DNA from: Phycisphaerae bacterium
Lineage (GTDB): Bacteria; Planctomycetota; Phycisphaerae; UBA1845
Reading direction: 5' to 3'
Assembly: GCA_029260235.1 (NCBI GenBank)
Contig: JAJDDP010000119.1
Span: 874-64,873, forward strand
Length of the DNA: 64,000 nt
The notes below the pieces were generated by a model. That model saw nothing but the letters and a program-made list of their open reading frames with translations. It was not told the origin of the DNA and ran no database searches. Of this stretch, positions 22,012-37,923 are shown piece by piece. Position numbers and translations under genes: made by a program. Within the stretch, counting starts at the first letter, position 1, and each line of letters starts with the position of its first letter.

Positions 22012-22497
22012 TCACTTAACGATAATGATGGGCGTACTGATGACGTGCTTCCAGGTCCCCGGGTCAACCGCCATGCCTCCGTCTAGTGGAATCGCTGTAA
22101 CCTCGACCCGGTGGATCGCGTTTCCGCATTGCCCCTTGCCCACAAACATGACTGGAAAGAGGCCGTCCACTATCGGTTGCCCCGTGAGGATGGTCGCATC
22201 GAGGCTTATTGTGCCATTTCCCAACGTCTCATCAGTCAGCCAGCTGCCGGTACCCATGAATGACTGCCAGCCCGCGAACCGTGTCATCAGAAATCCCCAC
22301 TCGATAGCGGACTGGGCCATGGCACGGGCTTTGACCGAGTCCTGGTTGTCTAGTGCGCCGCGGTGCTCCACACGGGCGATCGAGATTGAGCCGAGGCCAA
22401 TGATGGTCACCAGCATAGCTGTGCTGATCAACAAGACGTAGGTGGTTCCCAGACGCCGATGCCGCCCGGCCAACAAGCTGGATTTAGATCGATTCAT
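22012..22497 (-). CDS. PilX/GspK-like minor pilin
   Basis: RRLG|TTYVLL class III signal lacking Glu5, followed by ARAMAQSAIEWG (PilX N-terminal pattern). Confidence 0.7.
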   Translation of the reverse strand: MNRSKSSLLAGRHRRLGTTYVLLISTAMLVTIIGLGSISIARVEHRGALDNQDSVKARAMAQSAIEWGFLMTRFAGWQSFMGTGSWLTDETLGNGTISLDATILTGQPIVDGLFPVMFVGKGQCGNAIHRVEVTAIPLDGGMAVDPGTWKHVISTPIIIVK

Positions 22498-22534
22498 AGT
22501 TGCCTCTGATCTATCATGCCCATGGTTGACGGCA

Positions 22535-24112
22535 TTAGGGATTGCCATCGCAAATCGAGCCATCCCCTTCAGCGGTCTGCAAGGTTCCATCGCCGCAACA
22601 ATATCTTCCCGACTGATTGCCGTTGAGCTCACTGTCACAGTCAGCCGAGCAGCTGTTGCAGTCTTCGCCCACCTCGCAGATTCCGTTACCGCACGCCGTG
22701 CCAGGTAGCAGACAAGTTACATCGGTTGAGCAATTGATGTCGGCGCAGTCGGTAGATCCGTCGCAGTCATTGTCTAGGCCGTCCGCACAGGTTGCACCTG
22801 CGACTTCAAATGATGGTGGAAGTCCGCAGTCATCAGGGCATGTGCAAGCGTTTTCGCCAGCGTCACAGGTCCCATCTCCACAGACCGCAGGCGGCGGATC
22901 ACCAGCGCCTGCCGCCCATTCGATGGCGCGCTTCATCATTGCTTGGCCATCGCTGTTCAGCGAAGTGATGTCGAACACCGCTGTCCCCCACGGCAGCTGA
23001 ACTCGACGGCCCGGAACAGGTGAACCGGTCCAAGCGGTAGACCCAGCTTCTAACACCACGAGAGAAGGATAGGCAATCGCGCCCATCGTAATCGTGTAGG
23101 CCAGGGGGGCATAATCTGGGCTTACAGTTCCGAATAGCGTGTAGACCGCTTGGGGCGAATCAAAGATGGTCAGCGCACTTATAGCCAAGTCGGTCGTGAT
23201 ATAGTGAGTGTTGTCAGTTACCTGTACATCGGATTGAGTTGTGGCCTTAGACGATTGGCAAAATCCAAGAATGTCCATCTGCTCTAAGTGCTCGTTCGCC
23301 ACCCCGATATTCACGTTTTGCAACTTGGTCCCCAGATTGGCGCTACTCAAGTGCATGGAAAGGTAAACTGCATCGTTGAGGTTCATGGCCGACGTGAATG
23401 CGCCTGATGGGCCGTTGCATGCGATTCTGGTCACCTCAAATCCCCAGGCTAGAAATAGTGATTCGCGGGTAATTTCGTCTGCCAGGGGGAAATCAACATC
23501 GGTAACCACATAGAGCAGCCGAACGGTGGCGCCGGGCGGCTCTAGACCCGCCGTCCGCAATGCCTCAAGCGTAATGGAAACCCCATTCGAGTCGGTGGCC
23601 ACCACGGTGATCAGCTTCATCCCCGCGTCTTCGCCAAACATTGCAGCACCAAACGTCCACGGATCAAGCAGCTTGATGCTGGCGGTTCGTGTCCAGCCAT
23701 CCGCTCCGGGCAGCTGTGCGCCGGTATTGTCGGTAGGCGGAGAAGACGACCATCCGTGGTAATCATCGCAATCGTCGAACTTCGACCGGTCACTGCCCAA
23801 TTCGTCGGCCTCGGGGCCCGGCACCGGCAATTCCAAAAGCTGCCCGCTAGAGCGATAGGAGAATGTTGAACCACCTCCATTATCCGGGTCGGCGTACGGT
23901 TGCTGGCGGATTTCCTCCATGAGTGATTGGGCCAGAATCATGCCCAGTTGCTGATTACTGCTGGAGCGGCGACCCATGCGCGATGCGCCGAGCGTATTCA
24001 ATGAGGCGATCAGAAGCCCGCCGACCACGCCGATGGAAATAACCGCTTCTGCCAAACTAAGGCTTCGGCGTCTCAAAGGGGAATCGTGTTGCCTGGGTTG
24101 CATGCGTGTCAT
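22535..24112 (-). CDS. PilV/GspI-like minor pilin fused to an extracellular domain and an 18-Cys acidic tail
   Basis: RRRS|LSLAE signal, LAQSLMEEI, FDDCDDYHG. C-terminal CGDGTC, CADGLDNDCDG and CGNGICE repeats. Confidence 0.75.
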   Translation of the reverse strand: MTRMQPRQHDSPLRRRSLSLAEAVISIGVVGGLLIASLNTLGASRMGRRSSSNQQLGMILAQSLMEEIRQQPYADPDNGGGSTFSYRSSGQLLELPVPGPEADELGSDRSKFDDCDDYHGWSSSPPTDNTGAQLPGADGWTRTASIKLLDPWTFGAAMFGEDAGMKLITVVATDSNGVSITLEALRTAGLEPPGATVRLLYVVTDVDFPLADEITRESLFLAWGFEVTRIACNGPSGAFTSAMNLNDAVYLSMHLSSANLGTKLQNVNIGVANEHLEQMDILGFCQSSKATTQSDVQVTDNTHYITTDLAISALTIFDSPQAVYTLFGTVSPDYAPLAYTITMGAIAYPSLVVLEAGSTAWTGSPVPGRRVQLPWGTAVFDITSLNSDGQAMMKRAIEWAAGAGDPPPAVCGDGTCDAGENACTCPDDCGLPPSFEVAGATCADGLDNDCDGSTDCADINCSTDVTCLLPGTACGNGICEVGEDCNSCSADCDSELNGNQSGRYCCGDGTLQTAEGDGSICDGNP

Positions 24113-24669
24113 TGTTGTATGACCTGCTGCCCATCGGTGGTTGGCTCATTGAGGATCTGAACCGAAATCCGCGCTTCGAGCTGGACATCCTTCTTGGTTC
24201 TGATGAAGATGGTGGCACCTGTGAAGACGTTTGTATCATTTCCTTGTTGGTCTTGACGGATGCCTTCGACAAGATTGAATTCCAAAACATCCACGTCTTC
24301 CAGAACGGCCACAGCGGCATCGCTGTTGTACTGTCGCATGAGCGGGCCGCCTGAGGATCCTCCCCAGTAGTAGCGAATGGTCTCATCGCCGACCGGACCA
24401 TGGCTGCGATCCGCCACCGAGAAAGTCATGTCCTCTTTCATGGGGTTGGTGAACGTGACGGCGTACTTGACTTCTGAGGCTATCTGGTCGAGCAGGTTGT
24501 GCAGCTCGATCAGCTGTTCCGGCGCGCTATCGCCAGCCGGTATCGTCTGAGCAGCTACGACCAAGGCTGATGTAAGTCCGCCCATCAGAATCACCATGAT
24601 GAACATGCTGACCATCATCTCGGCGAGGGTAAATGCAGGCCTTCTGGTTCTCTTGGGATGACGATTCAT
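24109..24669 (-). CDS. PilW/GspJ-like minor pilin
   Basis: RPA|FTLAEMMV signal, ETIRYYW. ATGA overlap with the next gene. Confidence 0.78.
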   Translation of the reverse strand: MNRHPKRTRRPAFTLAEMMVSMFIMVILMGGLTSALVVAAQTIPAGDSAPEQLIELHNLLDQIASEVKYAVTFTNPMKEDMTFSVADRSHGPVGDETIRYYWGGSSGGPLMRQYNSDAAVAVLEDVDVLEFNLVEGIRQDQQGNDTNVFTGATIFIRTKKDVQLEARISVQILNEPTTDGQQVIQQ

Positions 24670-24719
24670 TCGAATTTGTTCCTCTTCCAATCTTCTGGAA
24701 GGCACTCTCAACTCAGAGC

Positions 24720-25196
24720 CTATGGCCCAACGCTCGCCTTGCCGGTATCGGCGTCAAGCGTAACGGTCATCGCTCGGCTTCCTGAGCTGATCTTGATCGT
24801 GCCCCCAGAATCAGGCAGGCCATACCCATCGAAGATGACTGCCGTAGTACCACCGAAATCCGCCTTCACCGCGCGTAGGCGGTAAGGCTCCTCGGACAAT
24901 TCTACGGTATAGGTGTTGCCTGATCGGTCCAGGTCCGCTACTCCGAACAATAGGTATGATCTGCCGACCTGATCGAAGCTGACCATCTGGTTTGCTCCGG
25001 TGGTACGGGCATTCCTGCGGGCGTAGTCGAGATCAGCCACGATGCGGTAGGCAGCTACCTCTGCCCGATAATTAGACATGCTCGAAGCCGCCCGGGGGGC
25101 AGCAATCGCCGTGAACAGGCCAATGATCAGCAGGACGACGACCAATTCCGCGAAGGTGAAGGCTCTGATTCTCTGGTTGATTCGCAACATGCTCAT
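24720..25196 (-). CDS. FimT/GspH-like minor pilin
   Basis: RA|FTFAELVVV, ADLDYARRNA, VIFDGYGLP. Confidence 0.85.
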   Translation of the reverse strand: MSMLRINQRIRAFTFAELVVVLLIIGLFTAIAAPRAASSMSNYRAEVAAYRIVADLDYARRNARTTGANQMVSFDQVGRSYLLFGVADLDRSGNTYTVELSEEPYRLRAVKADFGGTTAVIFDGYGLPDSGGTIKISSGSRAMTVTLDADTGKASVGP

Positions 25197-25204
25197 ACTT
25201 CCGG

Positions 25205-25735
25205 TTACTTGATCATGGCTGCTCCACCGGCGTCTTTCATCGGTATCTCCGCCAGATCTGCTGCCGTCGCGTTGATTCCGAACTCTCCGGTAGAAAGGAC
25301 CGCCACCCAGCCACTGGATCCAGCGATGACCGGACTGGTGGGCGTGAGTATTACCCTGACGGTGTCCAGGTCATTCAATGGGTTCGTCGGGAATGGTGGG
25401 CGCAGGTAGGGCCCGAATATATAGGGAGACCCGTAGGTCGTGCTTACGTTTCCATTTTGATCACTGAATTCCATCAGTTGTCTGGGGAACATGGCGTTCT
25501 CCGGCGAGCCCGAGCTCGGGTTGTATCCAGGGTACTTTCCGTGCTCTGCCTCGTAGATTGCCATTGCCCGTGTCACTGTCGCTATGTTTGATTCAACAGA
25601 AGTACCCACAGCTGACGAAATGGCGGAACTAAACCGAGGTGCTGCAATGGCTGCTATGATGCCGATGATCACCACCACGATGACAAGCTCGACCAAGCTG
25701 AATGCACGCCGGGCTGCACTGCTCTGTCCGGTCAT
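25205..25735 (-). CDS. GspG/PilA-like major (pseudo)pilin 2
   Basis: RRA|FSLVELVIV..IAAPRF, YEAEHGKYP, FGPYL..FPTNP. Confidence 0.88.
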   Translation of the reverse strand: MTGQSSAARRAFSLVELVIVVVIIGIIAAIAAPRFSSAISSAVGTSVESNIATVTRAMAIYEAEHGKYPGYNPSSGSPENAMFPRQLMEFSDQNGNVSTTYGSPYIFGPYLRPPFPTNPLNDLDTVRVILTPTSPVIAGSSGWVAVLSTGEFGINATAADLAEIPMKDAGGAAMIK

Positions 25736-25814
25736 GTAGTTGGCCCCAAAGCAGCAGAGGGATGATGGTGGCCGATGCCCCGACAGACGCCACTATACTT
25801 TCCCACATAGAGAA

Positions 25815-25849
25815 GGCCGTCAGGAGCGTTGATGCTCAGACCGACGGCC
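25815..25849 (-). terminator. Stem-loop after major pilin 1 (attenuator or mRNA-stabilising hairpin)
   Basis: GGCCGTC (25815-25821) pairs with GACGGCC (25843-25849), with an inner GAGC/GCTC stem. The U-tract is weak. Confidence 0.5.
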
Positions 25850-25892: not shown

Positions 25893-26381
25893 CTAGTAGT
25901 CCACATAGTCCGTGCCGGCTTCGTCGGCGGCGGTTCCGGTGTTGGCGCTAATGTTTCCGGTGCCTTCGATGTAGATCCAACCCACCGTGGCTGCGTCCGC
26001 CGCTGCAGCCACCGTGTCACCGATGGCTCCCCCTGTAGTGCCGACACCGGCGATGGGCAAACCGGGAACAGCTTTTAGGTACGGACCGAAAATATGCGTC
26101 GCATCTTTGGTGGCGACTGTAGCGCCAGCCTCATCAGAGTAGGTCGTCAACATGTTTACGAAGGCAGCTACGGTCGGAAAGTTCCCGCCATGCTCTGCTG
26201 AGTACAGCTCGATCGCATTGCGCATCACAGCCAAGTTGCCACGGAGGGATGCGTCGCGGGCGCCCTTGGCACCTCGGCTCAACCGAGGTACGGCGATGGC
26301 GGCTATGACGCCGATGATGACGATGACGATGACCAATTCGACGAGACTGAAACCTCGGAGTCTGCGGTGAAAACGATGCAT
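25893..26381 (-). CDS. GspG/PilA-like major (pseudo)pilin 1
   Basis: RLRG|FSLVELVIV..IAVPRL, RNAIELYSAEHGGNFP, FGPYL. Confidence 0.9.
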   Translation of the reverse strand: MHRFHRRLRGFSLVELVIVIVIIGVIAAIAVPRLSRGAKGARDASLRGNLAVMRNAIELYSAEHGGNFPTVAAFVNMLTTYSDEAGATVATKDATHIFGPYLKAVPGLPIAGVGTTGGAIGDTVAAAADAATVGWIYIEGTGNISANTGTAADEAGTDYVDY

Positions 26382-26467: not shown

Positions 26468-26477
26468 GCGGGATGAA

Positions 26478-27026
26478 TCAATCAGAAGTATCAGAAACCA
26501 TCAATTCTGCACGGTTCTCGCCATTCTTGAAAACGGCAATGCGTCCGGTAATGTCGGCGAGTTTCCAGCCATCGACGACGTCGCCGATATTAACCCACCT
26601 CCCATCCAAGACTGCGATGTTTACACTTGCTCCGTGGATTACCGCCTCGAGCTTGTGGCTGGCGGAGAATTCGTCGGCAGAGATCCGTTGAGCCTGCTGC
26701 TTGCCGCTGCGAGGTCCTTCAGGACCATCTTCTGCTGTGATCAGTCGCATCGATTTGAGGACGGAAGGGGTCAGCTGAAACGCGTCCCGGAGATCGACTG
26801 CAGGCCGAGCTATTAGGCCGTTCGGAAACGCCTGAGGGGTTACTGCCACTGCATCCTCGCCATGAGCGGTTGAAGATTGGGCAGGGCCGGTGTTGCTGTC
26901 CGTGGCGGGCCGCGTTGGGGAAGCAGCTGCCGACGACGGTTCGCTGAAGACAAAGCGATCAAGCAACAAGGCCAAGAATCCAAAGGCCAGGAGTGCCGCG
27001 TAAAGTTTCTTCTTCTTTGGGTCCAC
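26478..27026 (-). CDS. PilP/GspC-like alignment protein
   Basis: N-terminal TM helix, low-complexity linker, LRDAF, beta-rich C-terminus (LEAVIHG..AVLDGRWVNIGDVVDGW). Position follows pilO. Confidence 0.65.
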   Translation of the reverse strand: MDPKKKKLYAALLAFGFLALLLDRFVFSEPSSAAASPTRPATDSNTGPAQSSTAHGEDAVAVTPQAFPNGLIARPAVDLRDAFQLTPSVLKSMRLITAEDGPEGPRSGKQQAQRISADEFSASHKLEAVIHGASVNIAVLDGRWVNIGDVVDGWKLADITGRIAVFKNGENRAELMVSDTSD

Positions 27027-27611
27027 TTATTGTTCCGTCGACTCTTCTTCCGCCTTATCCGCTGCGGAGTAGAAACTGAAGGTCAAATCCGCCCGCTTGT
27101 TTTGGGTGACTTGGGGGTCGGCAGATGCCATTTTCAAAAAAGTTACGTCTGCCCACGAAGATGATTGCTGAAAATCGTCCAGGAACTGAACATAGTCGTT
27201 GAACGTGCCGCTGGTGGTCATCTTGTAACGCAATTCTTGGATGCCAGGATACTGGTATGCCCCCAGAGGCATCAGGCCAGCCACCTGCAGGCCATTCTTG
27301 CGGGCCAATTCACTCAATTGCCTCAGCTCTCGTTCGACGGGAGTGGCCTGAGGGAGGAAGTCGCTTTCCCCGACAGTATCCTGGCGTTCATGCCCCGCGT
27401 CCGTTTTTCGACGGATCGCTTCGTCCATCCGAGACTGCATATCTTCAGCATGGCGGACTTCCTGATTGAGCGCATGGAGGGTCTTTGCCGTTGCTCCGGT
27501 GCCATAGAACGAAAACCAAAAACTTGTCCCGAGGCAGGCAGCCACCGAGAGTGCACCGGCAATATCGATCATGACGACTGAGTTTAGTTTCATCGTTCCT
27601 GCCATTACCAA
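27027..27611 (-). CDS. PilO/GspM-like protein
   Basis: TM helix, coiled coil, LSELARKNGL..GTFNDYVQFLDDF ferredoxin-like fold. Follows pilN. Confidence 0.72.
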   Translation of the reverse strand: MVMAGTMKLNSVVMIDIAGALSVAACLGTSFWFSFYGTGATAKTLHALNQEVRHAEDMQSRMDEAIRRKTDAGHERQDTVGESDFLPQATPVERELRQLSELARKNGLQVAGLMPLGAYQYPGIQELRYKMTTSGTFNDYVQFLDDFQQSSSWADVTFLKMASADPQVTQNKRADLTFSFYSAADKAEEESTEQ

Positions 27612-28216
27612 GTACAGGTCAGCTCAAAGTGAACCGCTCGTGACCGAAGTACATCCTGGCGTTCGGCGCGGACCAGCTCGACATAGTCAAATGCTCCCGA
27701 CGCCTTGAGCCGGGCCATGAATTCGTACAGATCATCATGGTCTATGGCATAGCCATCCAACATGAATGCACGAGCCCCAGCCAGAACCGTGAGTCCTTGG
27801 GTCGGCTCGTCTTTAGAGGCGGGTGGCCGCCCGGCTGGACGCGAGGGAGCCTGGGGCGTTTCGGTCGCCATGGTGGTCAACCACACCTCAGACGGCATTT
27901 CTTGGGAGATCATGGCCAAGAACGAGGCCCAGGATCGTTTGGTCCGCAGTGCATTGGCCCGCTCGATTTGCTCTACCAACTGGTCAAATTCGCCAATGAC
28001 GTCTGCCAGTTCGATGCGGGCGGAGGCGATCCTAATTGCCAAGTCGGCATTCTTGCGCCGAAGGCGATTGGCTACCGACTCCTGGTGAATTTGCCAACTG
28101 ATCGGAATTGCCGTCACGATTGCTGCCAACGTAAGGGCCAAACCCCAGCGGCGCAGGTGGCGCGCTCGGCGCTGACCTTCCATAATCGGCGGTGGAATCA
28201 GGTTGATACCGATCAC
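27605..28216 (-). CDS. pilN: PilN domain protein
   Basis: INLIP PilM-binding motif, TM helix, MPSEVWLTTM. The GTG start overlaps the pilM stop (GTGA). Confidence 0.82.
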   Translation of the reverse strand: MIGINLIPPPIMEGQRRARHLRRWGLALTLAAIVTAIPISWQIHQESVANRLRRKNADLAIRIASARIELADVIGEFDQLVEQIERANALRTKRSWASFLAMISQEMPSEVWLTTMATETPQAPSRPAGRPPASKDEPTQGLTVLAGARAFMLDGYAIDHDDLYEFMARLKASGAFDYVELVRAERQDVLRSRAVHFELTCTW

Positions 28217-29358
28217 AGATCTATCTCCGGATCCAAGGCTAACCCAATGGCACCCAGGTAAGTGCTCATTGGTTTCTCTGCCCGGCCGCCAACTGCGTAG
28301 GACGCACGTGCCGAGCACCCCTGCTCCAGAAACGCGTTGGCTGGTTCGACCGGTATTCCGAGTCGATTTTCCAGATAATGATCCAAATTGTGCATTGTGG
28401 ATCCCCCCCCCGAGAGCACCAGGAAACCCACCGACCGACCACGATAACACTGAAGGGCATACTCGTACGAACGCTCGATTTCTCCAACGAGATGGTCAAG
28501 CTCAGTCCGCAGCGCCGTCAAGATAAGGGCGGACAACTCATCAAGGCCGCCGCTGCTATGCTGAACCTCAAGGCCCGTACCCGGCGAGGTTGCGGTCTTG
28601 GGCTTGGTGATCCCATGATCCAGCTTGTGCGTTTCGGCTGCGCCGGTACTCACTTGGAGCGACTTGGCAATCAACTCTGTCCAATGGATTCCGCCTGCGC
28701 CCAACGAGCGAACCAGAATCGGGGTTCGATCCACACACAAGATCAAACGGCAGCCTCGTGCTCCGATATCCAGGATACCCCACACTGATTCTGGGGCCCC
28801 AGGCCTCATTAGAGCTACTGCCCGTGCTAGGGCGCATGCTGTGGCATCTACTCGGCTGCATTCCATCTTGGCCTGGCTGCACGCCTGCCAAATCTGGGTG
28901 ACCATGGACACAGCCGTCGCTACGCCTATGGCGCTGCAAGCGTGACCCTGCGTCTTGGGCAACCGCCAATGAGCGGTCTGGATCTCTTGCCCTCCCATGC
29001 TGCAGAGACGTTCGATTTCCCAGTGGGCAGCCGATCCAAACTGATCTTGCCCCATCGAATCTCCGGCTTGGGGAAGTTCCAGGGCATGTAATTCAACGTC
29101 CGGCGCCGAGAGGCCTACCACGACTTCCCTGCCGATGAATTCCTGCTCCCAAGCCGCTCGATTTAGGCGCTCCGTAACGGTACTGCATACGCCGTCGATG
29201 CCCGCTCCGGGAGGAATCTGCCAGGTCGATGCCCGCAGGACCACCCAACGGGACCCGCTTCGTTGCAGCTGGACTGCGCGCACCGCCGCCGCACCGATAT
29301 CCAATCCGATGGGCGTTATTTTCGCAGTCCGTTTTGACTTAACAGCGGGTCTCATCAA
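28213..29358 (-). CDS. pilM: PilM actin-like pilus assembly protein
   Basis: PIGLDIG, ILDIGA, EIERSYEY, LSGGGS, AIGLAL. Confidence 0.88.
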   Translation of the reverse strand: MMRPAVKSKRTAKITPIGLDIGAAAVRAVQLQRSGSRWVVLRASTWQIPPGAGIDGVCSTVTERLNRAAWEQEFIGREVVVGLSAPDVELHALELPQAGDSMGQDQFGSAAHWEIERLCSMGGQEIQTAHWRLPKTQGHACSAIGVATAVSMVTQIWQACSQAKMECSRVDATACALARAVALMRPGAPESVWGILDIGARGCRLILCVDRTPILVRSLGAGGIHWTELIAKSLQVSTGAAETHKLDHGITKPKTATSPGTGLEVQHSSGGLDELSALILTALRTELDHLVGEIERSYEYALQCYRGRSVGFLVLSGGGSTMHNLDHYLENRLGIPVEPANAFLEQGCSARASYAVGGRAEKPMSTYLGAIGLALDPEIDL

Positions 29359-29363: not shown

Positions 29364-30593
29364 CTACTGGGTCATCGAGGTGATGTCGAACATCGGCAAG
29401 AATAGCGAGATCGCCACCGCACCGACGACAACTCCCATCAGAATGATGATGGCTGGTTCGATCAACCGCGTGACCGCGCCGACCAGCTCAACATTGTCTT
29501 CGTCGAGGATGTCAGCCGCATAGCTGATCGCTCCTCCGAGATTGCCGCTCTCTTCCCCCGTGCGAACAGCTTGGCAAAGTGCAGGGGCGACTAAGTTGGA
29601 GGACTCCATCGCGTCGCTCAACATATTGCCGGAGGTGACGGCATTTTCCATTCGATCAAACAATATCTGGAAGCGGTTGTTCTTCGTTACCCGTCGGGTC
29701 AATTCCAGCGCCTCAAGGACTGCGACATGGGCCTCGAGCAGCATGCCCAAGGTGCGGAAGACCTGTCCTTGAATCAGGCTGGTCGCCAGCCTTCCGAGCA
29801 CTGGAATCTGAGTTTGCATGTTGATGCAGGTCCGCCGACCCGCCGAAGAGATCGCCAGGAACACCACTCCAGCGAGCAGCGTTCCCACGCCGATCACCAC
29901 CAGCACCCAATTGCCTCTGAGGAACCCAGACAGGTCAAGCATGAGCTTGGTTGAAGAGGGCAGCGGTGCTCCCAATGACGCGAACATCTCTCCGAAGCGA
30001 GGCAAGACAAAGAACAGGAGCACATTCACCTGGGCGGTGGCAAGCCCCATCAACAGCACCGGATAGGTCATCGCCCCCAGCACTTTGTTACGGAGAGCCC
30101 GGCGCTTGCCGATGATCTGGCTCAGCCGATCAAACATTTCAGGAAGCGTCGCACTAGATTCGCCTGCCGCGATGATAGCGCAATAAGATGCATCGAACAC
30201 TCTTGGAAAGCGGCACATGGCCTCCCCCAACATCGCTCCCTCTTCCAAATCGTCGCGCAATTGGCGAATCATCTCGACATGCTTGGGATGCTTCATTTGC
30301 CGCCCTATGGCTGCCAAGGCGGGGACGAGTGCGCTCCCACTCTTGAGCAACATGGACATCTGCCGGGTGAAGAGAAGCAATTGCTTTAGCGGAAGTTTGA
30401 ACTCCGCAGTCCAGCCCTCGGCGAGCTGCACCTTTTTCTCGACCTCATGGACCGTGGCTTCGGTGATGTTGGTCACCATGAGGCCCTTTTGGCGCAACTG
30501 TTCAACGGCCGCTTTGGACGAGTCAGCCATGATCAGATCACGGACCGGTTTTCCGCTGGTGTCGATCGCTTCGTAGGTCAGACTCAAACTCAT
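29364..30593 (-). CDS. pilC: PilC/GspF inner-membrane platform protein
   Basis: FTRQMSMLLKSG, AGESSATL, AMTYP, TGEESGNL, LIEPAII..SLFLPMF. Confidence 0.93.
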   Translation of the reverse strand: MSLSLTYEAIDTSGKPVRDLIMADSSKAAVEQLRQKGLMVTNITEATVHEVEKKVQLAEGWTAEFKLPLKQLLLFTRQMSMLLKSGSALVPALAAIGRQMKHPKHVEMIRQLRDDLEEGAMLGEAMCRFPRVFDASYCAIIAAGESSATLPEMFDRLSQIIGKRRALRNKVLGAMTYPVLLMGLATAQVNVLLFFVLPRFGEMFASLGAPLPSSTKLMLDLSGFLRGNWVLVVIGVGTLLAGVVFLAISSAGRRTCINMQTQIPVLGRLATSLIQGQVFRTLGMLLEAHVAVLEALELTRRVTKNNRFQILFDRMENAVTSGNMLSDAMESSNLVAPALCQAVRTGEESGNLGGAISYAADILDEDNVELVGAVTRLIEPAIIILMGVVVGAVAISLFLPMFDITSMTQ

Positions 30594-30596: not shown

Positions 30597-32366
30597 CTAA
30601 GCCTCCACCTCATGGGACGCCATGCCGCTGGGGTCACAAACCGAAATCGCTTCTGCCCGGGTAACCCGGAGAACTTCCTCCAAGGTCGAATCTCCCCGAT
30701 TTACGACTTCCAGCGCCTTTTCCCGCAAGGTCTGCCATCTGGTTTGGGCAAGATAGGTCCGAATGTCGATCTCACTCCCGCCTTCCTCGATGAGTCGTTT
30801 CAGCTCTGCATCCAGAACCATGACCTCGTAGATCCCTACCCTGCCCTTGAACCCGGTGTTGTGGCAAGACTGACATCCTTCGCCTTTGCTAAATAATTCG
30901 TTGCTGCGATCCTCCCAACCGACCGACTCTAGAAGTTGCGAAGATGGGTAGTACGAGGTCTTGCACGAGGGACAGATCTTCCGGGCCAACCGCTGGGCGA
31001 TGAACCCCAGAACACTCGAGCTGATCAGGTACGGTTCGATCCCCATGTCCAATAGACGGGCAATTCCGCCCGGGCAGTCGTTGGTGTGCAGCGTGCTCAG
31101 CACCAAGTGCCCCGTTAGAGCGGCTTGAACCGCGACACGGGCAGTATCCGTGTCCCGAATTTCTCCGACCATGATGATGTCGGGATCCTGCCGAAGTATG
31201 GAACGCAAAGCCCGAGTAAAATCCAAGCCTACCTGAGAATTCACTTGGATCTGGTTGATCTGGCCCAATTGATATTCGACTGGATCTTCTACGGTGACGA
31301 TGTTGACCGACTCGCTCCTGAGCAGATCAAGTGCCGAATACAAGGTGGTTGTCTTACCACTACCGGTGGGTCCAGTGACCAACAACAATCCGTAAGGACT
31401 TCTCAGCATCGCCTCGATGGCTGTCCGGTCTTGGTTGAGGACGCCTAGATCCCCAAGCTCGAAGCTGAGGTTGGTCTTATCCAGGATGCGGAGAACCATT
31501 TTTTCGCCCAGGATGGTGGGCATGCTGGAGACGCGCAGGTCTATTTCTCGGCCGTCAGCAACCAGATGCACTCGGCCTTCCTGTGGTAGTCTCTTCTCCG
31601 AGATATCCATTCTGCCAATCACCTTGATCCTTGAGATGATGGCTGCGTGAATGTTCTTCGGGGGCGATAGCAGGTCGCGGAGTTGGCCGTCGATCCGGTA
31701 CCGAATGTGGGTCGTGCCGCGCTCGGGTTCGATATGAATGTCGGATGCACCCTCTCTAAGCGCGGTCAAGATGGCCAGGTTCACCAGGTTGATCACCGGC
31801 GAACCGTCAATCATCTTGTCGAGGTCGGTGACAGGCCCTTCGTCGATCGCCTCAGATTCTGAGATGGTAACGTCGGCTTCCTCCATCGAGGCGAGGAAAG
31901 CGTCGACGGTGACTTCCTGTTGAAGATACTTCCGTTGATACTCCTCGATGTTCTCTTCTAGGCAAAGCACGGGCCTGATCTGGCAGCCTGTCAACAAGCG
32001 AAGTCGGTCGAGCACGGGCAACGACTGCGGCTCAACCATGGCGACGGTCAGGGTTTGCCCTCCGTCGTGCCGGTCGCTGACTCGGAACAGGGGCAGCACC
32101 ATCAGCCGCTCAGCCTCTTCCTTTGGGATGCACTTGGCGACCTTGGGATCAATCAGGCCGTGTCGCAACACGCAGCCAAGCACGCCCAGACGCCGTCCCA
32201 GAGCAGACACCAAGGAGGCTGAGTTAATCGCCCCGATGTCCATGAGCGCAGAACCCAACTTCGCTCCGCTGCCCTGCTGTTTAGACAGCGCATCGGTCAG
32301 CTGATCTTCGGTGATCAGCCCATCAGCGATGAGCTGCTCGCCAAGTCTAGCAGCTTGTCCGATCAT
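30597..32366 (-). CDS. pilB: PilB/GspE extension ATPase with N-terminal MshEN c-di-GMP-binding domain
   Basis: RLGEQLIADGLITEDQLTDALSKQ, ASDIHIEP, GPTGSGKTT, LRQDPDIIMVGEIRD, LTGHLVLSTLH, CPSC/CQSC. Confidence 0.94.
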   Translation of the reverse strand: MIGQAARLGEQLIADGLITEDQLTDALSKQQGSGAKLGSALMDIGAINSASLVSALGRRLGVLGCVLRHGLIDPKVAKCIPKEEAERLMVLPLFRVSDRHDGGQTLTVAMVEPQSLPVLDRLRLLTGCQIRPVLCLEENIEEYQRKYLQQEVTVDAFLASMEEADVTISESEAIDEGPVTDLDKMIDGSPVINLVNLAILTALREGASDIHIEPERGTTHIRYRIDGQLRDLLSPPKNIHAAIISRIKVIGRMDISEKRLPQEGRVHLVADGREIDLRVSSMPTILGEKMVLRILDKTNLSFELGDLGVLNQDRTAIEAMLRSPYGLLLVTGPTGSGKTTTLYSALDLLRSESVNIVTVEDPVEYQLGQINQIQVNSQVGLDFTRALRSILRQDPDIIMVGEIRDTDTARVAVQAALTGHLVLSTLHTNDCPGGIARLLDMGIEPYLISSSVLGFIAQRLARKICPSCKTSYYPSSQLLESVGWEDRSNELFSKGEGCQSCHNTGFKGRVGIYEVMVLDAELKRLIEEGGSEIDIRTYLAQTRWQTLREKALEVVNRGDSTLEEVLRVTRAEAISVCDPSGMASHEVEA

Positions 32367-32428: not shown

Positions 32429-32764
32429 TCAAATAAAACTGCGGGCAGCCGAAGAACTATCTTCAAAGAACTGGAAGCGAGACGACAAACCGGTCAACTC
32501 CAAAATCTCGCGGCAAGTTGAACCAACAGCTACGAGTTTCAGCCGGTTGCCCTGATCCATCAGTTCGTCCGCGGCGGTAATCAGCACATCCAAGCCTTGC
32601 GAATCCATGTAGGGAACATTCTGCAGCGAGATGGCTACGCGCGGGTTGGGATGGTTCAAGTGCACCATTAGAGCATCCGCAAACTGGGTTGCATCTTCAT
32701 CCGCCAGTGCTCCTTGAGGACTTAGCACTGCAACCGTGCCGACTTCCTGCATCTCGATCTTCAT
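32429..32764 (-). CDS. STAS-domain anti-sigma-factor antagonist
   Basis: VPYMDSQGL (phosphorylatable Ser), REILELTGL. ATGA overlap with the upstream gene. Confidence 0.9.
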   Translation of the reverse strand: MKIEMQEVGTVAVLSPQGALADEDATQFADALMVHLNHPNPRVAISLQNVPYMDSQGLDVLITAADELMDQGNRLKLVAVGSTCREILELTGLSSRFQFFEDSSSAARSFI

Positions 32765-34110
32765 GACTTGACTCCGGCGGTTGCTATCACCGAGGCACTT
32801 GTCTCGGGCGACGCCACATCGCTGAGCAAAGCTACGTTCCTGGCCCGGGCCTCGTGGCACCGGTTGATGGCCCGCGAAATCAATTCTCTAAGCGGTGGCT
32901 GTTCTGTGCCGCTGCCAGACACCCCGCAGCGCACAACGAGCGGAACTCGCCAACGGTCTCCGTCGCTGCACAGGTCGCTGAACGACTTATGCAGCTGCTC
33001 GATGATCAGTGCGCCTAGGGCTGAGTCCACGCGGCGCAGCAGAACCACAAACCTGGAATCATCGAACCGGCCTATGCAGTCATCAGTCCTGACGCGCTCA
33101 CCCAATAAGAGGGCGGCCTCTGCGGCCAGAGCATCCGCTAGATCCCAATCTCCTCGGTCACAGAGTAAGCGAATGCCTTCCACCGCCACGATGCCAACCG
33201 CAACAGGCTCATTGTGTACATAGGCGGCCGAGAGTGTGCGGTCAGCTTCGAATAAAAAGGACTCGCGCGCAAGCAGTCCCGACAAAGGATCTCTAATCTC
33301 AGCCGTGCGACGTCGGCAAACTTCTCCAAGCGTTACCCAGAACGAGGAAACTATGTTTTGAGCAAGGGTCAGCATTTCCGGATCGCACGCAGCCCCGGCA
33401 CTTAGGCTACCTATTTTTAGCAGTCCGATTCGCCGCGTACCTTGGCTGATCGCGAAGCACCAAGCCACCGGCTCGCCTGATTGACGGGCGAGCTGATCGA
33501 CCAGCTCACCGTGGGCTTGCTCGTTCTCGACATAGGCCCGCCCCGTGGTGGCCACATGTCCAACAATTCCACAGCGTGCCGAATCAATATCCATCAGTTC
33601 TCCTGGACCAATGGCCCGGAGAGGAACCAGGGCGTCGTCCTCACTGAGAATTCTGTAGGGGTGAACGTGCGTCGCCCCGGTTAATCGGTTCAGGGCGATA
33701 CGCAGAAACTCGCCGAACTCAGGCCATGGATCTTCCGAGTGGCGGTGGGCTTCGAGCCAATCGTCGAAGGCAAGGAATGTTTCGGTCAAGCCTCCGACGT
33801 AACTGTGTTTGGAAGATGCCTCCTCGGCCATCGCCGAGTCGGGTACATCGCTTACCCCAGAATTTGGCTCGCCCCGGTCCGTCGAAGACCAAGCGCCGAT
33901 GGCTGCAATGGCCACCGCGCCCGACGACAAGGCCAAGAGCGTCCAGGCGTCTAGGAAGGTCTCCACGTCACCCTCTGCGAATACCAATACAAGCCAGAAT
34001 GTAGCGCCGAGCACTCCGAACCACACACCCCGTGTCGGGAGCACCAGCCTGGCGCCGACGCCCACGGCCAATACGATGGGGAACCAAAGCAAGATCAAGG
34101 ACATACTCAT
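32761..34110 (-). CDS. Membrane GAF + degenerate GGDEF protein (PelD-like c-di-GMP receptor candidate)
   Basis: About three TM helices, GAF-like GIVGHVATTG, DPLSGLLAR, RTDD-CIGRF-DDSRF (RxxD kept, GGDEF lost). Confidence 0.8.
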   Translation of the reverse strand: MSMSLILLWFPIVLAVGVGARLVLPTRGVWFGVLGATFWLVLVFAEGDVETFLDAWTLLALSSGAVAIAAIGAWSSTDRGEPNSGVSDVPDSAMAEEASSKHSYVGGLTETFLAFDDWLEAHRHSEDPWPEFGEFLRIALNRLTGATHVHPYRILSEDDALVPLRAIGPGELMDIDSARCGIVGHVATTGRAYVENEQAHGELVDQLARQSGEPVAWCFAISQGTRRIGLLKIGSLSAGAACDPEMLTLAQNIVSSFWVTLGEVCRRRTAEIRDPLSGLLARESFLFEADRTLSAAYVHNEPVAVGIVAVEGIRLLCDRGDWDLADALAAEAALLLGERVRTDDCIGRFDDSRFVVLLRRVDSALGALIIEQLHKSFSDLCSDGDRWRVPLVVRCGVSGSGTEQPPLRELISRAINRCHEARARNVALLSDVASPETSASVIATAGVKS

Positions 34111-35486
34111 CCTGGATTCCTTCCGCATTGGTGACTCCGGGTCGCGTTCACCGGCGCCCCGAGCGTACTGCCCTTGTCAATTCGGCTTGCAACTTGGATG
34201 CGTTTGAAATGATCAGGCTCATTCTCCGCCAAGTTGCGAATTAAACCGGTGAAGATCGTCGCCAATTCTGGATCGATCGTGCTGCCTGCTTCTTCGGCAA
34301 TGATTTCCAATGCCTTGGGCCAGTCGAACGCCCTACGATAGGATCGGTTGGACGTCAAAGCGTCGAAGATGTCGGCCACTTGAACGATTCGAGCCTGCCG
34401 CGGGATGTCCTGGCCGGCAAGACCGCTCGGGTAACCTTTGCCGTTCCACTTCTCGTGGTGATGCATAACTCCATCCAAGGCATCAGCCAGCTGGGGTATC
34501 TCTCGGACCACCTCATAACTGCGCACCGGATGTTCCTTGATGTGCTCAAATTCCTCGTCTGTGAGCTTCCCCTCTTTCTTGAGCACTGCGTCTCGGATGC
34601 CAATCTTCCCCACGTCGTGCAGCAGGGCGGACCACTCCAGCATCTGGAGTTCCTGGGCATCCAACCCCACCGCCCGTCCGAGCATGACCGCATAGATCGC
34701 CACGCGCGATGTATGCCCCGAAGTGTATTCGTCCTTTTGTTCGATCGCGTTGGTCAACGCCTCAACAACGTTCACCGACAGATTTCGCAGCTCAGCCACA
34801 AGACGAAAATTGCGAATCATGTCGCCACAGAAAGCGGTGAGCGACTCGAGAAGCGACATGTCACTTGCTTCAAAAGGACGGAACGAACCTGACTTGGTAT
34901 CTGACGGCCCATGGGTTAGCAGCAAGACCACAACCAGCGAGTCTCCGGCATAGACCGGGCCGGAGATCAGCCGTAGCACGGGCGGCTCATCGCTGCAGGG
35001 GTGCGCACAATGATTGCAGTGTGGCAGGTCACCCTCGATGCGGGATTCTGGGCAATCCTTCACGATCAACCGCCTCGTGGTGATACTTTCCTCCACCGCC
35101 TCTACTATCCAGTCGTGCCGAGGTACGTCTCCGTCGAAATTCAACGAATCGGCAGTCCCGGCGCACTTCACAACGGCGATGCGCGTGTGTGGGTAGGTGA
35201 CGCGAAGACTCTTGGTGAAAAGTTGAAGGACTGCCTCCTCATCGTGCAAGGTGGGCAATTGGCGGGTAACTTCGAACACAATGCCCAATTGCTCATACGC
35301 CCGAAGAAGCTCATCAGCCATCCCCGTATGCTCGGTGACGATGTTTTGAACCTGCTGATCCAGCACATCGAGTCGCTCATGGAATTCGATATCCGTGTCG
35401 GGCAAAGCGTGGGCAGTCGTCGCCCGCAACGCGCTCAAGGCCCCCTGCACGGTTCCCTCTATTGAGTCGCTTGCACAATCCGCCAT
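34107..35486 (-). CDS. GAF + HD-GYP cyclic-dinucleotide phosphodiesterase
   Basis: KDEYTSGH, LLHDVGK, EHP, HHEKWNGKGYP, RQAR, VADIFDAL..NRSYR are all intact. Confidence 0.92.
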   Translation of the reverse strand: MADCASDSIEGTVQGALSALRATTAHALPDTDIEFHERLDVLDQQVQNIVTEHTGMADELLRAYEQLGIVFEVTRQLPTLHDEEAVLQLFTKSLRVTYPHTRIAVVKCAGTADSLNFDGDVPRHDWIVEAVEESITTRRLIVKDCPESRIEGDLPHCNHCAHPCSDEPPVLRLISGPVYAGDSLVVVLLLTHGPSDTKSGSFRPFEASDMSLLESLTAFCGDMIRNFRLVAELRNLSVNVVEALTNAIEQKDEYTSGHTSRVAIYAVMLGRAVGLDAQELQMLEWSALLHDVGKIGIRDAVLKKEGKLTDEEFEHIKEHPVRSYEVVREIPQLADALDGVMHHHEKWNGKGYPSGLAGQDIPRQARIVQVADIFDALTSNRSYRRAFDWPKALEIIAEEAGSTIDPELATIFTGLIRNLAENEPDHFKRIQVASRIDKGSTLGAPVNATRSHQCGRNPG

Positions 35487-35567
35487 TAAATCATCCCTAC
35501 TTCCGATTCAATCTCAATTCCAACCAAATCCGCTTGCAAAGCGCAACTGCTCCTCGCCTCGATTGGG

Positions 35568-35942
35568 TCAAGCCGGTACATCGACCGACAACAATTGTTC
35601 GACCTCAACCATCAATCGAGACGGCGAGAATGGTTTGGGATGCAGGTTCACGTTGCATCCTCTAATTTGCCCTGCTATGGCGTCTTGGTCACAACGGCTT
35701 GAGAGCATGATCACCGGCAGGGTCTTACTCTTCTTTGAGCGAAGCCACTGCACCAACTCGATCCCACTCATGCGCGGCATGTTGACATCAGACACGATCA
35801 GGTCCACGTCCACCTTGGACAGGACATCCTGGGCAGCCTGCCCGTCTCTGGTCTCTAGAACCTCGTGCCCATTCCGTGCCAGCCACATCGACAGAATGCG
35901 CAACATGTGGGCGTCGTCTTCGGCTATCAAAATCTTGGCCAT
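35568..35942 (-). CDS. Single-domain response regulator (CheY-like)
   Basis: ILIAEDD, IVSDVNMP (phospho-Asp), VIMLSS, KPFSP. Confidence 0.92.
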   Translation of the reverse strand: MAKILIAEDDAHMLRILSMWLARNGHEVLETRDGQAAQDVLSKVDVDLIVSDVNMPRMSGIELVQWLRSKKSKTLPVIMLSSRCDQDAIAGQIRGCNVNLHPKPFSPSRLMVEVEQLLSVDVPA

Positions 35943-35958
35943 GTCTGCTTGGCTCCTG

Positions 35959-37878
35959 CTATCCGTGCAACACAACCGCTGGCGCTGCGTTCTTGACCGG
36001 CATTCTCATAACGAACGTAGCTCCTTGTCCCTTCTCGCTCATCACTTCAATGTCACCGCCATGCCGACGGGCAATCTCTCGCGCCGTGGTCAAACCGATA
36101 CCCGTGCCGGTTTCCAATTGGACATCCGGGTCATCGGCCCGTTGGAATTTCTCGAAGATGCGCGTTTGATCTTCCGCCGAAATGCCCAACCCCGTGTCCT
36201 TTACCGTGATCAGCATTTCGGTTTCTGACATCTTGCAGCCCAGATGAACCGAGCCGCCCGATGGCGTGTACTTCAGCGCATTGCCAAGCAAGTTATTGAG
36301 TACGACGGCCAACTTGTCGCGATCACCTTGCGTGGTCCCCAGCTTGGCTGAGAGATCCATCTGCAAGTCGATCTTCTTTTCATCGGCCAAGCCGCGCACG
36401 TCGCGAACCGCCTCGGACACCAAGGCGCGCACATCGACGACGTCTTCGAGCAGCTGCATACTGCCCGCTTCGATCTGGGAGATGCTCAAGATGTCTTCGA
36501 TCAATCTCGACAAACGACGCGTCTCCTTAGTGATGACGTTGTAGCAATCTGTCACCACCTTGGGGTCGTCGAACATGCCACTTGAGAGCGTCTCGGCGTA
36601 GGCCCGAATGTTGGTCAATGGGGTCCGCAGTTCATGCGTCACCTGGGAAACGAACTCTTCACGAGAGCGATCAGCCCGCACCTGTTGCGAGATGTCGGTC
36701 ATCACCACCAAACATTCATCAGCCCGTCCACGGCGGACCGAGAGCACGCGGAGCCGGTAGGTGCTGCCGTGTTCCTCATCCTCCACGTTCTTGACCGCAG
36801 AACGAAACGAACCGTCGGGCCCCTGCAGTTCGCGAATTGCATCGACGAACTTCCGCCCAAGACGCCCAGCTTCAATGTCATCCAAGGAGACCCGCGTCGA
36901 ATCCTCATCCTTGGGACGGTTCCAACCCAGCAGGTGAACTGCCTTCGAGTTGAAGTAGCGTAATACGCTGCCGTCGGTGACATGGATCAGGGCATCGGGG
37001 AGCGCATTAAGCACTTCAGCCAACTCGCCACCGCTGGATCGTTGCAGCGCTTCCTTCAACTCCGCGCTGGCCGTTGAACGCTGAGTCTTGTCTTGAAGTT
37101 CAACCACCAAATCGATTAGCGTGTTCCAGGTTTGGGCAAGGGCGCCAAGTGAATCCGCTACGCGCAGCGATTCGATCTGCTCTGACAGAGCATCAGATTT
37201 TGCTTCGAGGTGGTCAGCGATGCAGGCCATCCCCCGGTAGTGCTTCCGCATCAGGCGGTACAATCCCAGGAACACGGCAATGGCTCCAGCCATCACCCAC
37301 ATGGTTGCCGTCTGATTCGTCCAGAGACTGCCCTCGGGCGATGAAGTCAGCACGCCCTCCACAAAATGAATCGCAGTTTGGCCTCGAACAGAGATTGGAA
37401 ATCTAAAGAGAGACCGTGATCGTCCCTCGGCATCAAGCCCCAGCGGGACTACCTCCATCCATTCCGATGCCTGGCCAGCGAAGTTCGGATCGGTCGGACG
37501 CGTCGTACCGACCTCTTCGGGCCTGGCCGACACCACAACCTTACGTTGCCCGTCGATGACTCTTAGTTCGCTGCAGCCCAAATGACTTGAAATGTCCCGG
37601 ATGGCGCTGCCCTGTTCAGATATGTCTGCCTCAGCCAGCGACCCTAGCCTTCCTCCCATGCACTCCAAGGCGCGGTACTGCACCCGGGCGAGTTGGCGGC
37701 TGCTCTCCTTGTTTGCTTGAAGCAAGGCAGTCCACGCGGTGAGCGCGAGCGAGATCGCAAACAGGGCTAGCAGGCAAAATCCCATCCATCGTGGAACTTC
37801 TTCGCGGACCCAAAAACCTCTAATTCTCTCTACAAAATTCTGCACGTCGTCTATCACCTGTCCCGTCAATTTGCGCAT
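35959..37878 (-). CDS. Membrane sensor histidine kinase (2 TM, PAS-like, HisKA, HATPase)
   Basis: THELRTPL H-box, NLLGNALKY, DTGLGI, IFEKF, GTGIGL. Confidence 0.93.
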   Translation of the reverse strand: MRKLTGQVIDDVQNFVERIRGFWVREEVPRWMGFCLLALFAISLALTAWTALLQANKESSRQLARVQYRALECMGGRLGSLAEADISEQGSAIRDISSHLGCSELRVIDGQRKVVVSARPEEVGTTRPTDPNFAGQASEWMEVVPLGLDAEGRSRSLFRFPISVRGQTAIHFVEGVLTSSPEGSLWTNQTATMWVMAGAIAVFLGLYRLMRKHYRGMACIADHLEAKSDALSEQIESLRVADSLGALAQTWNTLIDLVVELQDKTQRSTASAELKEALQRSSGGELAEVLNALPDALIHVTDGSVLRYFNSKAVHLLGWNRPKDEDSTRVSLDDIEAGRLGRKFVDAIRELQGPDGSFRSAVKNVEDEEHGSTYRLRVLSVRRGRADECLVVMTDISQQVRADRSREEFVSQVTHELRTPLTNIRAYAETLSSGMFDDPKVVTDCYNVITKETRRLSRLIEDILSISQIEAGSMQLLEDVVDVRALVSEAVRDVRGLADEKKIDLQMDLSAKLGTTQGDRDKLAVVLNNLLGNALKYTPSGGSVHLGCKMSETEMLITVKDTGLGISAEDQTRIFEKFQRADDPDVQLETGTGIGLTTAREIARRHGGDIEVMSEKGQGATFVMRMPVKNAAPAVVLHG

Positions 37879-37895
37879 CTGGAACTACCTCTGTT

Positions 37896-37923
37896 CTATC
37901 GAGTTCCGCCCGCATCTACTTGA
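37896..37923 (-). promoter_or_regulatory. sigma28-like promoter at the head of the signalling/pilus operon
   Basis: Minus strand TCAAG-N15-CTCGATAG, 17 nt upstream of the ATG at 37878, with a GAGG SD in between. Confidence 0.55.

Follow-up and report, generated by a model that had tools for sequence, protein, structure and literature searches.

A putative STAS-based control module directly upstream of the extension motor gene of a type IVa-pilus-like operon in Planctomycetota

The closest functional analogue of the system considered here is the PilB–PilZ–FimX complex of Xanthomonas citri, in which the small adaptor PilZ links the type IV pilus motor PilB to FimX, a degenerate-GGDEF receptor of cyclic di-GMP (c-di-GMP) (PMC8389850; PDB 7lkm/7lko). 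There, PilZ binds PilB mainly via the ND1 subdomain, the PilB residues named for the contact being L72, F77, L100, F101, F108 and I134, and the X. citri PilB is described as being without an MshEN c-di-GMP motif of its own (PMC8389850). This work deals with a cluster of 17 genes from a Phycisphaerae bacterium (phylum Planctomycetota), contained in a stretch of 64,000 nucleotides (contig JAJDDP010000119.1, positions 874 to 64,873, assembly GCA_029260235.1; from now on, the window), in which a putative small ND1 adaptor and a putative degenerate-GGDEF receptor are also associated with a PilB. The likeness is functional only, and no PilZ or EAL domain was found in any protein of the cluster: the adaptor is a PilZ protein there and a STAS protein here, and the parts found here are unrelated to PilZ and EAL. 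Likewise, the putative receptor encoded here combines transmembrane (TM) helices, a GAF domain and a GGDEF domain with an I-site and, unlike FimX, has no EAL domain, although the profile built from its family finds as best solved match the FimX GGDEF domain (3hva, 3e-19), narrowly over the next GGDEF structure (5.6e-17). The window PilB, unlike its X. citri counterpart as described in PMC8389850, keeps the MshEN motif, and the genes described here share one operon with those of an HD-GYP enzyme, a kinase and a receiver, a further difference from the X. citri system.

Small STAS-like proteins are also known from the SiaC–SiaD and HsbA–HsbD systems of Pseudomonas aeruginosa, where a phospho-switchable protein of this type operates in a c-di-GMP pathway, its partner being an active cyclase and a kinase/phosphatase pair standing alongside. 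As in the cluster, the STAS-like protein is encoded there beside a GGDEF protein, and the entry 7e6g appears among both the sequence and the fold matches of the GGDEF-like protein described below. The systems differ in the partner, which is an active cyclase in P. aeruginosa and, according to our model, PilB in the present case, as well as in the dedicated kinase and phosphatase found in the former. A further comparison is offered by Xanthomonas campestris, in which RpfG, a REC-HD-GYP protein, works together with GGDEF proteins, a PilZ adaptor and PilT/PilU. There too, as is proposed here, the pilus motors are the meeting point of an HD-GYP enzyme under two-component control, of GGDEF proteins and of a small adaptor, but the receiver is fused to the HD-GYP domain, the genes are dispersed, the adaptor is PilZ and the targets are retraction ATPases. 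Finally, the MshE, PilB and PilF ATPases of Vibrio cholerae, Myxococcus xanthus, Clostridium perfringens and Thermus thermophilus carry in cis the same tandem-motif MshEN layout as the window PilB, and differ in that the motor is not reported to come with a dedicated phosphodiesterase, a second receptor or a STAS protein. Literature searches found no published link between a STAS protein and PilB and no description of the cassette, and the main text of a 2024 review of PilB cofactors contains none of the terms STAS, Planctomyc, HD-GYP, anti-sigma or partner-switch. This agrees with the first-pass annotation of the window, which did not recognise the arrangement from characterized loci.

The explanation held here, with moderate confidence, is that the cluster is a type IVa-pilus-like filament operon with a post-translational control module lying directly before the gene of the extension motor. 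Its 17 open reading frames, whose products were assigned to families by means of Pfam and NCBIfam profiles, are all present and co-oriented on the minus strand, from position 37878 to 22012, as previously annotated. They encode, in this order, a sensor histidine kinase (HK), a receiver protein (REC), a GAF-HD-GYP protein, a TM-GAF-degenerate GGDEF protein (GGDEFdeg), the STAS protein, PilB, PilC, PilM, PilN, PilO, a protein at the PilP position, two pilins and four minor pilins. All four overlapping junctions noted in the first reading were confirmed: ATGA between the HD-GYP and GGDEF-like genes (the true start of the latter being M7, at 34110), between the GGDEF-like and STAS genes and between the fourth pilin gene, which encodes a minor pilin, and the gene for a 525-residue protein, and GTGA between pilM and pilN. 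The largest intergenic gaps in the cluster measure 62–157 nt, and the ATG of the REC gene, preceded by AGGAG, is found 16 nt past the HK stop codon. A scan for promoters and terminators was uninformative (4 promoter-like sites versus 6.9 expected and 16 terminator-like sites versus 13.2 expected). The flanking genes, encoding BtpA (on the opposite strand) and a VanZ-repeat protein, are unrelated.

Strong support for the cluster as a unit came from the comparison with 20 loci fetched from the same order, of which 14 belong to the window's family and 6 to four others (five families in all: f1, f3, f4, f5 and f6). The HK, REC, GGDEF-like, STAS, PilB, PilC and PilM genes keep the window's order in every one of them, with those for PilN, PilO, PilP and the pilins mostly trailing PilM, while BtpA is found in 1/20 and VanZ in 0/20, so that the conservation of the order is far beyond chance. 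The synteny test that had been suggested for the block running from the HK to PilB therefore gave a clear answer, as the complete block, HD-GYP gene included, is kept in 19/20 loci, and in all 20 if the HD-GYP gene is disregarded. The stop and start coordinates of the GGDEF-like and STAS genes coincide or abut in the orthologous loci, and PilB is 55–76% identical across the relatives, far above the identity of its neighbours. When the GGDEF-like protein was used as a query, 30 of the 36 genomes of the same family gave a near-full-length match with E <= 1e-60 and one more a fragmented match; the remaining five, which are 62–100% complete, gave no match better than 1e-5. Matches with E <= 1e-20 were found in 14/24 other genomes of the order, and a scan of 400 further genomes of the phylum with the family profile, in which only four candidates each were scored, retrieved no member at E <= 1e-25. 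On account of this absence, the GGDEF-like gene seems to have been added to the cassette within the window's order.

The signalling proteins retain, with one exception, the residues expected for their functions. Motif counts refer to the window plus the 20 orthologues (n = 21), unless n = 20 is given; locus L041 was left out of one alignment because the coordinates taken for it enclosed a stop codon; the gene itself showed none and is therefore not regarded as a pseudogene. The HK (35959..37878) comprises two TM segments followed by PAS, HisKA and HATPase_c domains (Pfam), and its H-box THELRTPL is kept in 21/21 orthologues, as is the acceptor Asp of the single-domain REC protein (35568..35942; PF00072, 1.2e-21), which is a response regulator without an output domain. 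In the GAF-HD-GYP protein (34107..35486; PF13487, 1.2e-41), the residues H290/D291, H343/H344/E345 and G351/Y352/P353, corresponding to the HD, HHE and GYP motifs, are invariant (n = 20), and its AlphaFold2 (AF2) model (pLDDT 84.5) has as best fold match the GAF-HD-GYP enzyme 4mcw (389 columns, E 1.8e-17). By residues as well as by modelled fold, the protein is a predicted c-di-GMP phosphodiesterase, in keeping with its earlier designation as a c-di-GMP sink.

The exception is GGDEFdeg (32761..34110), which is matched by PF00990 with 32 bits. The former GGDEF site reads DDSRF, and an RTDD sequence, fitting the RxxD pattern of an I-site, is found five residues upstream. The catalytic GG[DE]EF signature is lost in 21/21 orthologues, which makes the protein fail as an active diguanylate cyclase, whereas RxxD is retained in 20/21; since this is the sole GGDEF protein of the cluster, the earlier claim that no active cyclase is encoded there holds. 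The AF2 model, based on 20 orthologues (pLDDT 85.6), displays three TM helices, a long helix, a GAF-like domain and the GGDEF domain, and its best solved fold match is the GAF-GGDEF cyclase 4zmu. The GAF labels given previously to this protein and to the HD-GYP protein are thus backed by fold (4zmu and 4mcw, respectively), but neither protein yielded a GAF match in Pfam. The same architecture of TM helices, GAF and degenerate GGDEF domains is that of PelD of Pseudomonas aeruginosa, which binds c-di-GMP at its RxxD motif and controls a polysaccharide synthase, whereas the cluster described here would act on a pilus. Membership in the PelD family was considered and rejected: only PF00990 and generic GGDEF models matched, with no PelD-specific Pfam or NCBIfam model among the matches, no PelD structure was present among the 50 best fold matches of the model, and no pel genes were found near the cluster.

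A relevant observation was made in locus L038 (G040:C10, ~4561-6296), belonging to one family of the order, in which the HD-GYP gene is absent between the REC and GGDEF-like genes. It is the only locus lacking HD-GYP, and it also encodes the only GGDEF-like protein without RxxD. This co-loss fits a function of both proteins linked through c-di-GMP. The same locus has a second PilB, not associated with STAS, ~9 kb downstream.

The alternative that survives best, although it is considered unlikely, is that GGDEFdeg is not a c-di-GMP receptor but a membrane scaffold, or a GAF sensor of another ligand, the nucleotide reaching the system via PilB only. The low Pfam score of its GGDEF domain (32 bits) would agree with this, as would the confinement of the family to one order and the fact that STAS-PilB modules elsewhere work without any GGDEF-like protein. 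Such a scaffold would hardly explain why RxxD has been kept in 20/21 proteins at the canonical distance from a site lost in all 21, nor why its sole loss coincides with that of the HD-GYP gene, and the likeness to PelD also points to c-di-GMP binding. GGDEFdeg is therefore retained here as a predicted receptor.

The other predicted receptor is PilB itself (30597..32366), a PilB-type extension ATPase with an N-terminal MshEN motif and an ND1 subdomain. Besides the T2SSE domain (465 bits), it is matched by the MshEN profile and by NF053729, a c-di-GMP motif (49.7 bits versus a cut-off of 38, residues 7-58). Two 24-residue motifs (residues 7-30 and 36-59) are separated by a 5-residue spacer (31-35), a layout that agrees with the one given for MshEN in PMC11656802 and that makes c-di-GMP binding a reasonable prediction. 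The structures matched by PilB include the MshE N-domain (5htl) and the c-di-GMP-binding domain of PilF, while its best solved relatives are full-length type IVa PilBs (~1e-141). The core of what the first-pass annotation proposed was thus right: no cyclase is encoded in the cluster, whose own sensor, c-di-GMP sink and pair of likely receptors are syntenic with pilB, the binding of c-di-GMP being predicted from conserved motifs.

Regarding the machine driven by this motor, PilB is accompanied by the PilC/GspF platform protein (29364..30593; PF00482, 4e-45, T2SSF 153 bits), the two together forming the ATPase and platform pair of a type IVa machine, even though the scores with TIGR02538 and the PilC NCBIfam model remain below their cut-offs. 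The putative alignment subcomplex follows, with PilM (actin-like, 28213..29358; PF11104, 2e-18, with TIGR01175 below cut-off) and PilN (27605..28216; PF05137, 1.2e-9) above the Pfam cut-offs, a weak PilO-like protein (27027..27611; PF04350, 18 bits versus a cut-off of 22) and a membrane-anchored protein (26478..27026) with no Pfam or NCBIfam match above cut-off, for which the name PilP previously given is warranted by its position only. By tblastn, the PilO-like protein is found at the same position in 15/20 loci and the PilP-position protein in 17/20. N_methyl motifs are present in four pilins: major pilin A, with a GspG-like N-terminus (25893..26381; G|FSLVE, N_methyl 1e-7), the likewise GspG-like pilin B (25205..25735; A|FSLVE, 4e-6), which is encoded by a separate gene in some relatives only, a GspH/FimU-like minor pilin (24720..25196; PF12019, 3e-7, plus N_methyl) and a further minor pilin (24109..24711; A|FTLAE, 2.4e-6).

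It could be argued that the same regulatory module governs a pseudopilus resembling that of type II secretion systems (T2SS), dedicated to the export of proteins and not a surface pilus for adhesion or motility. The below-cut-off T2SS matches and the lack of a PilT gene in the cluster are the reasons for keeping this rival. Indeed, the best NCBIfam models for several parts are those of T2SS (GspF 305 bits, GspG 42 bits for pilin A, GspH 32 bits), GspE scores nearly as high as PilB on the motor (572 versus 579 bits) and the pilins are short (162 and 176 residues). All of these T2SS models remain, however, below their curated cut-offs. Moreover, the cluster encodes separate PilM, PilN and PilO proteins in place of GspL and GspM, and none of its proteins matches GspC, GspD, GspL or GspM in Pfam or NCBIfam. 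In addition, the motor aligns in full length, including its N-terminal domain, with type IVa PilBs, whereas GspE structures align from residue ~180 onward only, and a tree, built without a GspE outgroup, places it among the PilB-type ATPases. The pseudopilus is consequently regarded as improbable, somewhat more so than the scaffold role of GGDEFdeg. Because of the full-length match to type IVa PilBs and the separate PilM, PilN and PilO, the machine is filed as type IVa-pilus-like, a classification predicted from family matches and sharing the moderate confidence of the explanation of which it is part.

The gene directly before pilB encodes the STAS protein (32429..32764), of only 111 residues, which belongs to the anti-sigma-antagonist superfamily (TIGR00377, 60.4 bits versus a cut-off of 53.45; PF01740) and whose best solved matches are TM1442 and SpoIIAA-type proteins. 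Asp54-Ser55, at the position of the phosphorylated serine, is invariant in 21/21 orthologues, so that both the fold and the conserved phosphorylatable residue of partner-switch proteins are present. The protein was modelled in complex with PilB (residues 1-575) and the GGDEF domain of GGDEFdeg (residues 245-440), each chain with its own alignment and STAS being the scored partner. The STAS-PilB pair reached ipSAE values of 0.76, 0.72 and 0.75 in three runs, whereas the best of three controls gave 0.00; the runs shared at least 95% of their contacts, with a partner pLDDT of at least 83. No STAS-PilB complex was listed in the PDB sequence searches, which makes it unlikely that this result derives from the memory of a solved pair. 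All confident contacts were established between STAS and PilB. On the side of PilB, they involve residues 63, 65, 70-71, 73-76, 93-98, 105, 107, 131 and 133, within the ND1 (MshEN_C) subdomain that directly follows the c-di-GMP motifs; on the side of STAS, they comprise residues 51-52, 54-55, 58-59, 62, 83, 86-87 and 89-93, including the invariant D54, S55 and E86. According to a weak alignment (7lkm_A, E 0.018), the predicted STAS contacts at PilB 63-76, 93-98 and 131-133 occupy the region in which the residues of X. citri PilB named for the contact with PilZ are found. No contact between STAS and the GGDEF domain (residues 245-440) was reported, and the control in which this domain was kept and PilB replaced gave 0.00. 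This lends no support to an interaction between the two proteins, yet it is no evidence against it either, as GGDEFdeg was represented in the model by its GGDEF domain alone.

The predicted dock is also marked in the evolution of PilB. In a tree of 101 PilB sequences, built with no GspE outgroup and in which a PilB was labelled as STAS-linked when a STAS match to the hidden Markov model was found <= 1.5 kb upstream, a single branch (SH-aLRT 99) separates all 36 STAS-preceded PilBs from the rest, to which the four other long PilB paralogues of the window's own genome belong. Several contact positions distinguish the STAS-linked PilBs from the others: F94 (36/36 versus 4/65), V96 (35/36 versus 4/65), L71 (34/36 versus 6/65) and G70 (31/36 versus 3/65). 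Sixteen of the 36 were outside the alignment given to the complex model, and the nine most distant of those all have F94 and V96 (9/9 in each case). A peculiarity of the window PilB is a six-residue insertion in ND1 (residues 100-105, 32049-32066), which none of the other 35 STAS-linked PilBs shares and which is a gap in at least 64/65 of the remaining sequences; residue 105 is among the modelled STAS contacts.

The pairing extends beyond the window's order. Among 20 regions taken as the best STAS-profile matches in 20 genomes from outside it, PilB lies directly downstream of STAS in 19, all of which have an HK match upstream, and the GGDEF-like gene is found in 0/20. A scan of species-representative genomes, with a single PilB protein as query, yielded at least 80 loci, in which simpler arrangements could be recognized. 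Among the matches listed, the HK-STAS-PilB form was seen in L051-L056, from metagenome-assembled genomes (MAGs) with Phycisphaeraceae or Phycisphaerae in their titles, and in two more, the HK-REC-GAF-HD-GYP-STAS-PilB form in MAGs of Phycisphaerales and Tepidisphaerales, and partial forms of the cassette in records titled Thermoguttaceae, Pirellulales and Planctomycetota. A STAS gene directly upstream of pilB is, from these matches, a trait that reaches across Planctomycetota. L063, L098 and L057, three STAS-PilB loci that cluster together inside the STAS-linked PilB clade, stem from MAGs labelled Deltaproteobacteria, Gammaproteobacteria and "uncultured bacterium", which would reflect either a transfer outside Planctomycetota or mis-binned or mislabelled contigs.

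The least probable alternative, a doubtful one, is that STAS is a conventional anti-sigma-factor antagonist, regulating the transcription of the pilus genes by titrating an RsbW-like kinase from another part of the genome, its adjacency to pilB reflecting mere co-expression: its superfamily, the invariant phospho-Ser position and the two strong RsbW-like genes and 13 PP2C matches found on other contigs of the genome would suit this role, but the RsbW-like gene on contig C113 adjoins a STAS gene of its own, the cluster has no conserved kinase, phosphatase or sigma factor, and the adjacency to pilB is kept across families, the PilBs concerned forming a monophyletic clade with specific conservation of the ND1 surface at the predicted dock. 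The partner-switch role assigned by the first-pass annotation is not supported in its classical form, as STAS is predicted to bind PilB itself and not an anti-sigma kinase. Given this predicted binding, STAS is better read as acting like a motor adaptor of the PilZ type, or a direct cofactor of the motor. Since the phosphorylatable serine sits in the interface, phosphorylation of Ser55 would be expected, by analogy with SpoIIAA/RsbV, to break or alter the contact with PilB.

Several points weigh against the explanation of the cluster as a c-di-GMP-responsive control module acting on the motor through STAS. The 17 genes include no kinase or phosphatase for STAS, and no cognate Ser kinase or PP2C is conserved in the 20 loci. 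Lineages with HK-STAS-PilB alone exist, which implies that the c-di-GMP genes are dispensable for whatever STAS does, and the joint loss of HD-GYP and RxxD was observed only once. As for PilB, the Arg of the first MshEN motif is replaced by Gln in 3/21 orthologues, the motif being otherwise kept, and MshEN is also common in PilBs without STAS, so that it is an inherited feature of PilB and no mark of the module. The loci of the PilB scan are a biased sample, as they were chosen by six peptide patterns. With respect to the complex, the mark attained by the STAS-PilB pair was reached by 58/80 solved complexes and 2/110 mismatched pairs in the calibration of the tool, counts that hold only roughly for three chains with user-supplied alignments, and a high score expresses the confidence of the model and does not amount to a measurement.

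Taking these points into account, the operon with its control module could work as follows. The membrane kinase, whose domains are well defined, would sense an outside signal and phosphorylate the stand-alone receiver, with which it is presumed to pair. The receiver may then modulate the GAF-HD-GYP enzyme, lowering c-di-GMP locally. Two readers would respond to this change, PilB through its MshEN motif and the membrane-bound GAF-degenerate-GGDEF protein through its I-site, as suggested by the conservation of their motifs and by the one co-loss. STAS, in turn, is predicted by the model and by the clade-specific conservation to bind ND1 beside the c-di-GMP motif through its Asp-Ser face, and this binding might gate the engagement of PilB with the PilM/PilC platform. 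Genes elsewhere in the genome would provide the outer-membrane, peptidase and cyclase functions.

In agreement with the last point, the description of the cluster as self-contained could not be maintained, as secretins, prepilin peptidase, stronger GGDEF proteins and the RsbW-like and PP2C genes are all encoded on other contigs. The cluster includes no PilQ secretin, PilD peptidase or PilT ATPase, and PilT-like ATPases are found elsewhere in the genome. The assembly, which is 95% complete, contains four secretin matches, all on other contigs; one is a PilQ-like secretin (STN, Secretin_N and Secretin domains) found between two pilin-like ORFs and a TPR protein (C47:93452-97486, L151), and another is part of a Tad-like locus with RcpC/CpaB (C4:1373-5344, L152). 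The sole Peptidase_A24 match of the genome is a 183-residue protein in this Tad-like locus, and no long PilD-type peptidase was found in the 95%-complete assembly. Eight GGDEF matches stronger than that of the cluster are located on other contigs, and the corresponding proteins are likely active cyclases. A second pairing of a PilB-like ATPase with c-di-GMP genes was noticed on contig C165 of the same genome (C165:2190-7217, L153), where an FHA-GAF-PP2C (SpoIIE) phosphatase, a 562-residue PilB-like ATPase with MshEN and a single GGDEF-HD-GYP fusion follow one another; in the tree, this PilB sits on a very long branch, and no STAS gene precedes it.

The last two genes of the cluster had been annotated as minor pilins. 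Their products (525 and 208 residues) have pilin-like N-termini by eye and no family match, and the pilW and pilV names are unconfirmed. The 525-residue protein (22535..24112) is a candidate tip subunit. Its first ~190 residues are conserved, most relatives sharing only residues ~13-196, while the C-terminus varies between relatives and, in the window, is Cys-rich and acidic, with a below-cut-off match to NF033662, an acidic double-disulfide repeat that is the only profile to match this protein. It gave no Pfam match, no usable Atlas match and no PDB sequence match below E 0.08; one further match to the repeat region was detected on contig C132. The last gene (22012..22497), at the GspK/PilX position, encodes a protein that lacks Glu5 in its pilin-like N-terminus, and it has tblastn matches in 12/20 loci, starting at query residues 38-67. 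Just downstream of the cluster (17390-21758) lie the genes for a hybrid PAS-HisKA-HATPase-REC kinase (plus strand), a phosphotransferase system EIIA-2 protein (plus strand) and a 502-residue protein with three VanZ repeats (minus strand), none of them syntenic with the cluster in relatives. DNA of the window is contained in four DNA sequencing runs from one study, labelled biofilm metagenome, one of which may be the source of the window, and no RNA run was among the matches listed.

For c-di-GMP-regulated type IV pili, the docking of a STAS protein on the motor, as modelled here, would be an undescribed way to switch assembly. Tentatively, and with rather less confidence than is placed in the operon as a whole, it may be proposed that STAS represents a new class of PilB cofactor, i.e., a partner-switch protein re-targeted from anti-sigma kinases to ND1, so that serine phosphorylation would release or engage the motor, and that in the window's order a PelD-like receptor and a private HD-GYP enzyme add a local c-di-GMP input. 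If this is true, Planctomycetota would have evolved from unrelated parts the adaptor-on-ND1 logic of PilZ/FimX, a gammaproteobacterial system. The three grades of the cassette, from HK-STAS-PilB through HK-REC-HD-GYP-STAS-PilB to the latter with a degenerate GGDEF protein, would form a series in which c-di-GMP control has been layered onto the motor, and the minimal version would point to a direct input from the kinase to STAS. The licensing of PilB is an active question, and its known cofactors come almost all from proteobacteria and Myxococcus. The module described here offers a phylum-wide, sequence-defined candidate, with an interface opposing F94, L71 and V96 of PilB to D54, S55 and E86 of STAS, and it bears on the control of filament assembly in planctomycetes, a group in which little is understood of surface fibres and attachment.

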